This document shows positions 1 through 695 of a DNA stretch of 695 nt, one piece after another. Location: NCBI RefSeq assembly GCF_003334385.1, contig NZ_QOWN01000150.1, one strand, 5' to 3'. The notes under the pieces are model-generated. The model made no database searches and was not told where the DNA came from. It was given only the letters and a program-made list of their open reading frames with translations. Made by a program: the position numbers and the translations under genes. This DNA comes from Escherichia coli (lineage in GTDB: Bacteria > Pseudomonadota > Gammaproteobacteria > Enterobacterales > Enterobacteriaceae). How positions within the stretch are numbered: the first letter of the stretch is position 1; every line of letters begins with the position of its first letter.

Positions 1-30
1 CGACAGGCCGTATCTGATTTTTGCGTTCAT
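1..30 (-). CDS. 5' end (first 10 codons) of a putative prophage endolysin, GH24 lysozyme, RrrQ/YdfQ-like; gene continues beyond the left window edge
   Basis: Seen in sequence: minus-strand ATG at complement of 28..30 followed by AAC GCA AAA ATC AGA TAC GGC CTG TCG = M-N-A-K-I-R-Y-G-L-S, open to the window edge. Established knowledge, recalled from memory and not searched: the E. coli K-12 Qin prophage lysozyme RrrQ begins MNAKIRYGLSAAVLA.... Caveats: only 30 bp visible, and no Shine-Dalgarno motif within 15 nt upstream on the minus strand. Confidence 0.35.
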   Translation of the reverse strand, partial: MNAKIRYGLS

Positions 31-51
31 GGATATTTATCAGGATTTATC
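31..51 (+). repeat. Tandem direct repeat GGAT(AT)TTATC (31..41 and 43..51) in the divergent intergenic region; a third GGATAT copy lies at 66..71; possible protein-binding or operator-like site
   Basis: Seen in sequence: GGATATTTATC at 31..41 and GGATTTATC at 43..51, spaced about one helical turn apart; GGATAT recurs at 66..71. They lie immediately upstream of the putative lysozyme ATG (read on the minus strand as GATAAAT repeats) and upstream of the plus-strand small ORF. No confident match to a known operator consensus. Confidence 0.25.
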
Positions 52-91
52 GGTTCCGAATCCCTGGATATGTTAAGTCTTCAGCCCGCCA

Positions 92-331
92 GTGGTGGGC
101 ACTGGCGTAAACTCAACAATGCGAGATGGCTGCCTCGCAAAGATAATCAAAGCAATGGATGCACTAAGTAAAAATAACGCTGTGTCAGATTACCTGATCG
201 CCGAAATGGAACATCTAATTAAAGAAATACCAAAGACAGTTGCTCGTGATGATAAAAGATTCCTCAAGGCTGCTGAAGATGCTCTTTCAACAGTGAAGCG
301 CAGCTTAGATGCGCCGCGCGATCAAGAATAG
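92..331 (+). CDS. Hypothetical small protein (79 aa from GTG at 92, or 70 aa from ATG at 119); possible moron-like ORF; could be a chance antisense ORF
   Basis: Seen in sequence: open frame bounded by in-frame TAA at 74..76 upstream and TAG at 329..331. Candidate starts are GTG 92 and ATG 119, neither preceded by a recognisable Shine-Dalgarno motif. The predicted peptide is helical and charged (rich in A/K/L/D/E), with no signal peptide or transmembrane segment. Codons include ATA x2, CTA x2, AGA, CGA. The last 68 bp (264..331) overlap the 3' end of the minus-strand CDS, so one of the two readings in that segment may be non-coding. Hand-counted GC of 121..240 is about 40%, below the window average. 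Confidence 0.3.
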   Translation: MVGTGVNSTMRDGCLAKIIKAMDALSKNNAVSDYLIAEMEHLIKEIPKTVARDDKRFLKAAEDALSTVKRSLDAPRDQE

Positions 332-695
332 TTTCTTTCATTTCATCTGCTGCAAGCACCTCATTTTTTGTTGGGATGCTTTTTTTCAATTCAGCGATAT
401 AGCACTCCAGTTTTTCAATGCGTGATTCAATATCATCGTTTTCTGACCGCAATGCCGTCGGTGGCGTCTTCAGAGAACCAGTAATTATTCCCGGTAGTTT
501 TCCTCTGTAGGTTATCAACACATCCTGCGCCTCTAAAATTATGGGGCGCTTTTCCGGCGACTGCTCATCCCCTTCACATAAAGCGGCAGCAATATCCATG
601 AAAAACTGCTTCGCCTGTTTTTTCGCCTCAGCTTCGTAAAACTCCAGCGTGGCACCTTCAGTACGGTCAAGACTAATCGCCACATATGGCAACAA
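264..695 (-). CDS. Hypothetical protein, 5'-partial (N-terminus lies beyond the right window edge); predicted compact N-terminal region followed by a charged helical, possibly coiled-coil, C-terminus; function unknown
   Basis: Seen in sequence: uninterrupted minus-strand reading frame of 143 sense codons from the window edge (695) to TGA (complement of 264..266). The first codon TTG at 693..695 is probably a window-edge artefact, not the true start. The only internal ATG (complement of 597..599) has no Shine-Dalgarno-like purine run upstream. Amino-acid composition is protein-like, with a heptad-like charged stretch DDIESRIEKLECYIAELKK. Codon usage resembles horizontally acquired enterobacterial genes (ATA x3, CTA x2, AGA). 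No transmembrane-like stretch, so it is not a holin. No family recognised from memory. Confidence 0.7.
   Translation of the reverse strand: MLPYVAISLDRTEGATLEFYEAEAKKQAKQFFMDIAAALCEGDEQSPEKRPIILEAQDVLITYRGKLPGIITGSLKTPPTALRSENDDIESRIEKLECYIAELKKSIPTKNEVLAADEMKETILDRAAHLSCASLLKEHLQQP

Follow-up and report, generated by a model that had tools for sequence, protein, structure and literature searches.

A probable reverse moron remnant between the YdfR-family and lysozyme genes of a complete lambdoid lysis cassette in Escherichia coli

Gene order and features of the locus

The window, that is, the whole 695-nt stretch of E. coli DNA analysed here (GCF_003334385.1, contig NZ_QOWN01000150.1), is 100% identical to a lambdoid prophage of E. 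coli JNEC-KY176 (NZ_AP045172.1). More than 40 complete genomes are near-identical to it across at least 80% of its length. The minus strand of JNEC-KY176 carries, in this order, sialate esterase, DUF1378, DUF826, a class II holin (71 aa) and a YdfR-family ORF; after a gap come lysozyme, two small ORFs, Rz with an embedded Rz1, and terminase. All genes of the lysis cassette are on the minus strand, and the moron described below is on the plus strand. An earlier, sequence-only reading of this DNA had given the order essQ, ydfR, rrrQ for the Qin prophage, which is confirmed in K-12 Qin; the present cassette has this order with a spacer of 233 nt added. The features of the window are as follows.

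1..30, minus strand: first 10 codons (MNAKIRYGLS) of the lysozyme gene, SAR-type, R/RrrQ-like, 177 aa at full length
31..80, plus strand: promoter-like region of the moron cassette, from conservation; read on the minus strand, an untranslated leader abutting the lysozyme ATG
81..138, plus strand: predicted structured 5′ leader of the moron transcript, from an inverted repeat, pairing statistics and a covariance model
138..146, plus strand: deletion junction, the sole remaining copy of a 9-bp repeat (CAAAGATAA), from alignment with four intact alleles
140..331, plus strand: moron gene remnant, codons 29-91 and stop, from translation, alignment and the PHROG match of the intact allele
354..387, plus strand: intrinsic terminator of the moron gene, weakened here, from a terminator scan and stem covariation
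264..695, minus strand: YdfR-family (DUF1327) ORF, C-terminal 143 codons and stop, from Pfam and PHROG
99..458, no strand: segment missing from H-19B-type Stx-phage cassettes, from pairwise BLAST, the H-19B sequence and a composition profile

The lysis genes

The ORF at the left edge had been taken for an endolysin gene, and the complete gene bears this out. The minus-strand ATG at 30-28 opens a SAR-type lysozyme of 177 residues; the full ORF is at nt 4497-5030 of the extended locus (L001) and is annotated as lysozyme. The protein matches the PDB entries 3HDE/3HDF, which we take to be structures of the phage 21 endolysin R21, and the RrrD entry 4ZPU, with E values of 2e-16 to 4e-16. Its N terminus is basic, then rich in G, A and S (YGLSAAILALITAGASAP) and weakly hydrophobic. 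This SAR-type N terminus, MNAKIRYGLSAAILALITAGASAP, is followed by a catalytic motif, E-8aa-D-5aa-T, read from the sequence. These features point to an endolysin with an N-terminal signal-anchor-release domain and a lysozyme motif. The lysozyme ATG is not preceded by an obvious Shine-Dalgarno sequence.

The sequence-only reading had suggested that the pinholin was missing and that the lysis module was rearranged or degenerate. This suggestion does not survive inspection of the neighbourhood beyond the window. A 71-aa ORF on the minus strand (L001 5799-6014, equivalent to window positions 799-1014) begins 104 nt past the right edge of the window. It matches PF04971 'P21 holin S' with an E value of 9.5e-33 over model positions 1-63 of 64, and also phrog_9876/phrog_20 'holin'. 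The stop codon of this P21-type class II holin is four bases upstream of the YdfR-like start, as in the Qin order. The holin thus occupies its canonical position, a finding that the earlier reading had itself named as evidence against its claim.

The search for spanin genes beyond the window recovered an intact embedded pair. Rz is encoded by a 155-aa ORF with an N-terminal hydrophobic segment, and the nested Rz1 is a 61-aa ORF with the lipobox LVVSAC. The ORFs of holin, lysozyme, Rz and Rz1 are all intact. The holin and endolysin genes are not directly adjacent; the YdfR-family ORF and the 233-nt spacer stand between them. The lysis genes are of the Qin and P21/Stx type, and have every defining feature tested except adjacency of holin and endolysin, which is also lacking in Qin. 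The lysis cassette is complete and of the ordinary Qin/Stx type.

The gap between the two same-strand genes

On the minus strand, three-frame translation of positions 31-263 gives open stretches of 14/23/21/16, 15/9/6/16/21/5 and 23/38/10/0/2 codons. As had been noted, every frame is broken by stops, and the longest run, of 38 codons, has no ATG; the only ORF found inside it is a 25-aa TTG ORF at 73-150. The run also carries a 15-residue hydrophobic patch (LFLLSASIALIIFA). This patch is not a holin candidate, because no start codon comes before it and the plus-strand gene opposite it is under selection; the statement that the gap encodes no hydrophobic holin-like peptide holds. Broken frames across 77 codons are the chance expectation, so that part of the observation is uninformative. 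The informative feature is the gap itself, 233 nt separating two same-strand genes that abut in Qin. A promoter scan of the gap found no minus-strand promoter for the lysozyme.

The moron gene and its deletion

The plus-strand ORF at 92-331 (79 aa, GTG start) is the remnant of a moron gene read back into its leader. Strain G1/2 and others carry the intact gene (91 aa), of which the 3′ two thirds are left here. Some pipelines call this open 79-codon frame a protein (P0019-P0023).

Alignment shows that the window is without exactly 100 bp relative to the intact alleles; in each of the latter the missing segment lies between two copies of CAAAGATAA. Lost with this segment were the ATG and its Shine-Dalgarno sequence (AAGGAA), together with about 28 codons in which the best-conserved motif of the family, LFDRIFTLELQVGF, lies. 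The deletion junction is identical in 15 complete genomes and five IMG/VR contigs and is also that of L001. About 29 complete genomes, and 14 of the loci retrieved, have the intact form. Homologues from Citrobacter and metagenomes already argue that the 100 bp were lost here rather than inserted in the other alleles.

The intact alleles differ from one another by 9-10% in DNA, with a pN/pS of about 0.2 and an in-frame 12-bp indel, showing that the moron gene is real; the intact alleles are under purifying selection. The intact allele matches phrog_18136 with an E value of 4.2e-52, and intact members are 87-91 aa. The window copy, with codons 29-91 only, falls short of a full-length phrog_18136 member (83-101 aa with the N-terminal LFDRIFTLELQVGF motif). 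Exhaustive searches show the family to be tiny, with 32 clusters at 90% identity and nine representatives at 50%. Searches for a function of the moron protein gave a best Pfam i-E of 0.013, no NCBIfam match, a PADLOC match at E 0.0048 that is not credible, and a PDB profile match at E ~0.5. The AlphaFold2 model of the protein is all-helical and of low confidence (pLDDT 62), with 66-79 for the C-terminal two thirds against 47-53 for the remainder.

Distant phrog_18136 homologues come from Citrobacter and from metagenome or read-assembly contigs, and in every case the late genes around them are on the other strand. Lysis genes of different types are nearby in four of the five contexts. These homologues keep the leader and the terminator with compensatory changes. 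The terminator of the intact alleles follows the stop codon and has the form AAGCACC...GGTGCTT with a T-run; its stem covaries, GCGTC/GACGC against GCACC/GGTGC, among the Citrobacter and metagenome homologues. A terminator scan called a terminator-like site in the intact allele (L002 4454-4481) and none in the window, where a G-to-A change at 376, seen only in this allele, breaks one stem pair.

Morons have been defined by their own promoter and terminator and by deviant G+C content (PMC3594210). The insert has a G+C content of 0.39-0.43, against about 0.46-0.55 in neighbouring segments of the lysozyme and YdfR domain, and the composition profile also shows a reversed AT skew. Its presence is patchy: it is absent from Qin and H-19B-type cassettes, and PhiR5_1 and Stx2-86 have other genes there. 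Patchy presence, a terminator of its own and deviant composition, the moron characters that were tested, are thus all found in the insert. The sequence-only reading had proposed an opposite-strand insertion beside the endolysin together with something degenerate. The insertion stands; what has decayed is the moron and not the lysis module.

Mosaic structure of the holin-to-lysozyme interval

Comparison of 31-263 with lambdoid lysis regions, which the earlier reading had called for, identifies the plus-strand moron as an insertion. Pairwise interval BLAST divides the window into parts of different distribution. Positions 1 to about 106 are common to all Stx/H-19B-type cassettes, and 107-266 are specific to this moron. 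The sequence from 267 is common with PhiR5_1, and that from about 459 with H-19B and Stx2-86. In H-19B, window position 98 is joined directly to 459, and a 114-aa YdfR-like ORF is encoded that is unannotated in the old record. The genes that the isolated phages PhiR5_1 and Stx2-86 carry in the same slot (phrog_2572, phrog_1853) are likewise on the opposite strand. Mosaic exchange in this S-to-R interval accounts for the variable tails of the YdfR-like ORF.

At least 80% of window 1-110 precedes this lysozyme start in 1082 of 5426 complete E. coli genomes, so an endolysin gene with an untranslated leader in front of it is nothing unusual. The S-to-R interval of Stx-like prophages may be regarded as one of several slots in the late operon for interchangeable opposite-strand cargo with one conserved promoter and leader.

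The promoter-like region and the leader

The promoter-like elements of the window are TATCAGGAT at 38-46, GG at 66-67 and a -10-like TATGTT at 69-74. Since these motifs lie where they do, the module extends up to the lysozyme start codon. Across 74 distinct cassettes a TAnGnT hexamer, a G at -14 and the upstream TATCAGGAT motif are conserved; the frequencies are 0.88 for T at -12, 1.0 for A at -11, 0.88 for T at -7, and 0.95 each for G at -15 and G at -38. The window carries every one of the conserved positions. A sigma-70 scan at a threshold of 9/12 found no promoter in either the window or the intact allele, so the plus-strand promoter at 31-80 is a putative one, proposed from conservation. 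A sigma-54 type promoter built from CTGG...TTGA was rejected by eye, because the spacing is wrong.

The leader that follows begins with TCAGCC (81-86). Hairpin 1 pairs 87-94 with 100-107 (CGCCAGTG/CACTGGCG), and hairpin 2 pairs 121-125 with 134-138 (GCGAG/CTCGC). Hairpin 1 was considered as a terminator and rejected, since neither strand has a T-run. The loop GGCUG of hairpin 2 (128-132) is complementary to CAGCC (82-86), which makes a pseudoknot possible. Among the distant homologues, conservation is higher in the 5′ untranslated region than in the protein. The region has the order TCAGCC, hairpin 1, about 15 nt, hairpin 2 with the loop GAUGGCUG(A), Shine-Dalgarno sequence and ATG.

Pairing statistics over 58 leaders show hairpin 1 to be 98.1% paired, with five of its eight pairs changed on both sides. 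One of these pairs is UG in 25, UA in 17 and CG in 16 sequences of the alignment, which fits an RNA transcribed from the plus strand. CAGCC and GGCUG are 100% paired in 58 of 58 leaders and are nearly invariant, the only changes being five C-to-U cells that keep a G-U pair. Hairpin 2 is 95.3% paired in the canonical set, where it hardly varies. Its pair counts are limited to that set because loop lengths differ and MAFFT places the 3′ arms out of register; elsewhere hairpin 2 was read directly from the sequences. Whole-leader folding energies are not significantly below those of shuffled controls (z -0.02 to -2.25). The covariance model R1, built from this alignment, matches window 71-154 at 59.6 bits, a score to be read with near-identical relatives in the training set. 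Independent matches to the leaders of other S-to-R cargo are Stx2-86 at 41.9 bits and PhiR5_1 at 24.1 bits.

The leader is not confined to this gene. An exact scan of IMG/VR with the canonical 18-mer GGGATGGCTGATTACCTC gave at least 120 stretches in phage contigs. Among the matches listed, 115 have a small ORF (median 72 aa) that starts about 10-20 nt downstream of the motif. These 115 ORFs fall into at least 22 unrelated clusters among the matches listed, with no assignable function in any cluster tested. Lambda-like tail genes flank about half of the module copies among these matches, and these copies are always on the strand opposite to the tail genes. The named phages that carry the module include HK97 (gp23, annotated as 'reverse moron product'), HK022 (gp23, 'srb'), HK633, mEp043, mEp213, ES18 and SPN3UB. 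A conserved 3′ module was sought and not found: a crude terminator test picked out only 20 of the 115 cargo genes, with terminators unrelated in sequence. Only the 5′ module is common to the cargo genes.

Rfam 15 gave no relevant family for the leader, either with the E. coli allele in E-value mode or with canonical copies in gathering and E-value modes. A literature search, whose range lay outside the 2000 HK97/HK022 paper, found no mention of the 16-mer GATGGCTGATTACCTC or of 'reverse moron'. It is possible, as a tentative proposal, that window 31-138 is a diverged copy of an uncatalogued module, a promoter with a leader of about 75 nt, that drives dozens of unrelated antisense ORFs and places them under a shared post-transcriptional control. 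The module would operate in lambdoid late operons, in tail and lysis regions, with a possible pseudoknot beside the anti-Shine-Dalgarno-like GAUUACCUC. If so, strict conservation of the leader over unrelated cargo would suggest a shared control such as protection of the 5′ end from RNase E, or alternatively a translational switch read by a phage or host factor. A leader that is a real regulatory RNA would give a handle for finding phage accessory genes expressed in lysogeny, and a defined element for testing how such genes stay expressed inside a silent late operon. This shared leader is the one part of the locus that might be worth pursuit by specialists.

Comparison with known systems

The cassette resembles that of Qin in its 71-aa class II holin, in a DUF1327/YdfR gene 4 nt downstream, in a 177-aa lysozyme starting MN.KIRYGLSAA, and in an Rz gene with embedded Rz1 (rzpQ/rzoQ). 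The families, their order and the single strand are the same. However, Qin has a YdfR of 103 residues and an ATGA overlap of the ydfR stop with the rrrQ start, whereas the YdfR-like protein of the window has 176 residues with another tail, and 233 nt with a plus-strand cassette precede the lysozyme gene. DNA similarity to Qin upstream of the lysozyme gene is limited to about 10 bases next to the ATG (window 31-40).

In phage 21 the Sec-exported endolysin remains bound to the membrane, and it is released when the pinholin depolarises that membrane. The holin of the present locus matches the P21 S Pfam family over its full length, and the lysozyme, like that of phage 21, is of the GH24 type with a weakly hydrophobic N-terminal segment and an E-D-T motif. 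Yet the lysozyme is of the RrrQ type and distant from R21, with an alignment that begins at residue 29. The holin also differs at its N terminus, MYQM; S21 has a lysine between two Met codons, which is absent from MYQM. In addition, an extra gene and the moron lie between S and R here.

HK97 gp23 and HK022 gp23 are small ORFs opposite the late operon with the same promoter-like region and leader. Their module copies are 81-84% identical to a canonical copy by blastn, and the records describe the products as (reverse) moron products. They lie between tail genes I and J, in contrast to the window moron, which lies between ydfR and R and is truncated, and their cargo proteins are unrelated to it.

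The anti-sRNAs AsxR and AgvB and the Pas sRNAs are also encoded by small convergent accessory units in the late region of Stx-like prophages. Their sites, however, are either downstream of the PR′ moron genes, as convergent sRNA pairs 3′ of stx2B in Sp5, or beside the sialate esterase gene and the holin/lysozyme operon, and not in the ydfR-lysozyme gap. AsxR/AgvB and the Pas sRNAs bind Hfq; unlike the window cassette, they are non-coding. These known prophage sRNAs were rejected as the identity of the window element, as they map elsewhere and there was no Rfam match.

Interpretation of the gap and alternative explanations

The reading that we favour, and hold to be very probable, is that 31-263 consists of the promoter, the leader and the 5′-truncated body of a reverse moron, that the moron is most likely dead, and that the lysis cassette is complete. 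On this reading a small plus-strand unit with transcription of its own was inserted between the YdfR-family and SAR-endolysin genes as a reverse moron, and a 100-bp deletion between two 9-bp direct repeats removed its translation start. With its Shine-Dalgarno sequence, its start codon and some 28 N-terminal codons lost to the deletion, the moron gene is most likely dead and its remnant probably untranslated. As other lambdoid phages do, the prophage would express its lysis genes from a late transcript under Q antitermination, which would read through the moron in antisense. Lysozyme would initiate at its own ATG (window 30) and not by coupling to ydfR as in Qin. No obvious Shine-Dalgarno sequence precedes this ATG; independent initiation is therefore an assumption, made from the analogous isolated phages H-19B and PhiR5_1, which share the leader. 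The SAR endolysin and the P21-type holin would then act as in phage 21. The gene order, the homologies, the deletion, the selection on intact alleles and the covariation of leader hairpin and terminator are observed at this locus and its relatives; promoter activity, loss of moron expression and normal endolysin expression are inferred.

A lysis module that is itself degenerate or rearranged, with an endolysin poorly expressed for want of a coupled gene or adjacent holin and a prophage cryptic for lysis, would account for the untranslated gap of 233 nt and the lysozyme ATG lacking a Shine-Dalgarno sequence. It would also agree with the pseudogene flag that PGAP gives to the YdfR-like gene and with the visible decay of the plus-strand gene. 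Yet the four lysis ORFs are intact, and the proximal leader is common to the Stx phage H-19B and to PhiR5_1 (listed host E. coli C), whose spacer is even longer and holds an opposite-strand gene. With the leader present in 1082 complete genomes as well, we regard such degeneracy as highly improbable. The degenerate part is the moron and not the lysis cassette, and the arrangement is common.

Continued translation of the truncated plus-strand ORF into a shorter, functional variant, of 79 aa from GTG 92 or of about 58 aa from ATG 155, is also unlikely. The frame is open through the native stop, the deletion allele occurs in 15 complete genomes from several countries, and the C-terminal two thirds that remain are the better predicted part of the protein. 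But the deletion took the ribosome-binding site, the ATG and the most conserved N-terminal motif, no Shine-Dalgarno sequence stands ahead of any remaining in-frame start, the disruptive terminator mutation occurs only in this allele, and PGAP annotates nothing at the truncated ORF. Identity among the carrier genomes is 99.5% over the region; there has thus been little time for decay, and the number of carriers says little on selection. Somewhat different is the idea that the promoter and leader (31-138) specify a non-coding RNA convergent to the late mRNA, which would damp leaky expression of the lysis genes in lysogens, the deletion having cost only dispensable cargo. In its favour, the window has the promoter-like motifs and the two hairpins undamaged, and an antisense RNA in prophage late genes, STnc6030, mediates superinfection exclusion (PMC7067206). 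However, the predicted start (about 81) is downstream of the lysozyme start (30), so the transcript would be complementary to the spacer and to the 3′ portion of ydfR and would miss the lysozyme initiation region. Moreover, the same leader lies between tail genes in about half of the copies among the matches listed, which suggests that it has no specific link to lysis. We consider this role very unlikely.

With a moron remnant as the preferred explanation, a holin present and a normal cassette, a false alarm is removed; the finding itself is ordinary and of little consequence. It also illustrates that annotation gaps beside lysis genes can come from decayed accessory genes.

The YdfR-like ORF

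The upstream same-strand gene (264..695), which had been described as soluble-looking, encodes a soluble protein of the DUF1327/YdfR family. In the source genome the ORF extends past the window and occupies 264-794 on the minus strand (176 aa). DUF1327 is matched over residues 1-112 (Pfam E 6.9e-40), and phrog_2091 is matched with an E value of 2.5e-79. PGAP annotates the N-terminal part only, with the pseudogene flag. A recent report has Qin YdfR binding to RNase E, in its catalytic half, and perhaps to RNA (PMC13232886). The C-termini of YdfR-like proteins are variable, with lengths of 103-268 aa among relatives. Here the domain is followed by a 64-residue extension, partly antisense to the 3′ end of the moron and its terminator, which at a pN/pS of about 0.5-1 over few sites is under little constraint.

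Leader module

A conserved promoter-like region and a structured leader some 75 nt long, which together precede the plus-strand moron in the window, lie upstream of at least 22 unrelated small ORFs on more than 120 IMG/VR contigs. HK97, HK022, ES18 and other phages also carry this module, and among the matches listed it is antisense to the late genes every time. Copies referred to here are:

Window 31-138, leader module copy
Comparison locus L074, 5478-5602, canonical copy
HK022 (L164), 1501-1621, canonical copy
HK97 (L165), 1501-1585, canonical copy

The leader contains a covarying hairpin and the anti-Shine-Dalgarno-like GAUUACCUC, and its sequence would allow a possible CAGCC/GGCUG pseudoknot. 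A search of Rfam 15 assigned no family to the module. Viral contig L087, which harbors two module copies about 4 kb apart, has a match to sRNA-Xcc1 exceeding the gathering score:

L087 5462-5546, plus strand, sRNA-Xcc1 (Rfam RF02221, 73.4 bits)

A tiny upstream frame starts at an invariant ATG within the loop of hairpin 2 (ATGGCTG):

Window 126-146, upstream ATG frame, with equivalents in comparison loci L012, L013 and L040-L043

This frame closes after 6 codons in L040, L042 and the E. coli alleles. In L041 the main ATG overlaps the stop of the small frame, and in L012 and L013 the hairpin-2 ATG shares the reading frame of the main ORF. The frame may encode a leader peptide, or its presence may be coincidental.

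YdfR-family ORF

The YdfR-family ORF bears a 64-residue C-terminal extension, the coding sequence of which is partly antisense to the 3' end of the moron and its terminator:

Window 264-458, minus strand, extension of the YdfR-family ORF
L001 (matching prophage locus of strain JNEC-KY176) 5264-5794, minus strand, YdfR-family ORF

PGAP labels the ORF of the window a pseudogene, yet its 176-aa frame is intact and is spanned end to end by the phrog_2091 match. The tails of its relatives vary (103-268 aa). [quoted passage not shown]

The 399-nt "empty" interval between the holin gene S and the endolysin gene R in the original H-19B record contains an unannotated 114-aa ORF of this family:

H-19B (L005, AF034975.3) 1558-1899, minus strand, YdfR-family ORF

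Downstream of this ORF lies a remnant of the reverse-moron promoter region, which makes the H-19B arrangement look like the product of a deletion.

Other sites

The slot between endolysin and spanins is a second variable one. It is occupied by an antirepressor gene in Stx2-86. In L001 two small annotated ORFs lie there, between the lysozyme and Rz genes; they are 43 and 60 aa long, and both include a strongly hydrophobic segment:

L001 4012-4143, minus strand, small ORF
L001 4158-4340, minus strand, small ORF

About 970 nt of L001 (8723-9692), from the tRNA cluster (Ile, Arg, Arg) to the sialate esterase gene, are devoid of annotated features, at a position which is the site of the toxin genes in Stx phages. 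An ORF scan gave nothing there but short plus-strand ORFs, the longest being 107 aa.

The deletion allele, which lacks the 100 bp between two direct repeats, is held by two different prophages of JNEC-KY176 (NZ_AP045172.1):

2,398,407-2,399,101, deletion allele copy
3,356,545-3,356,914, deletion allele copy

In other strains, parts of the window match at up to 11 places per genome.
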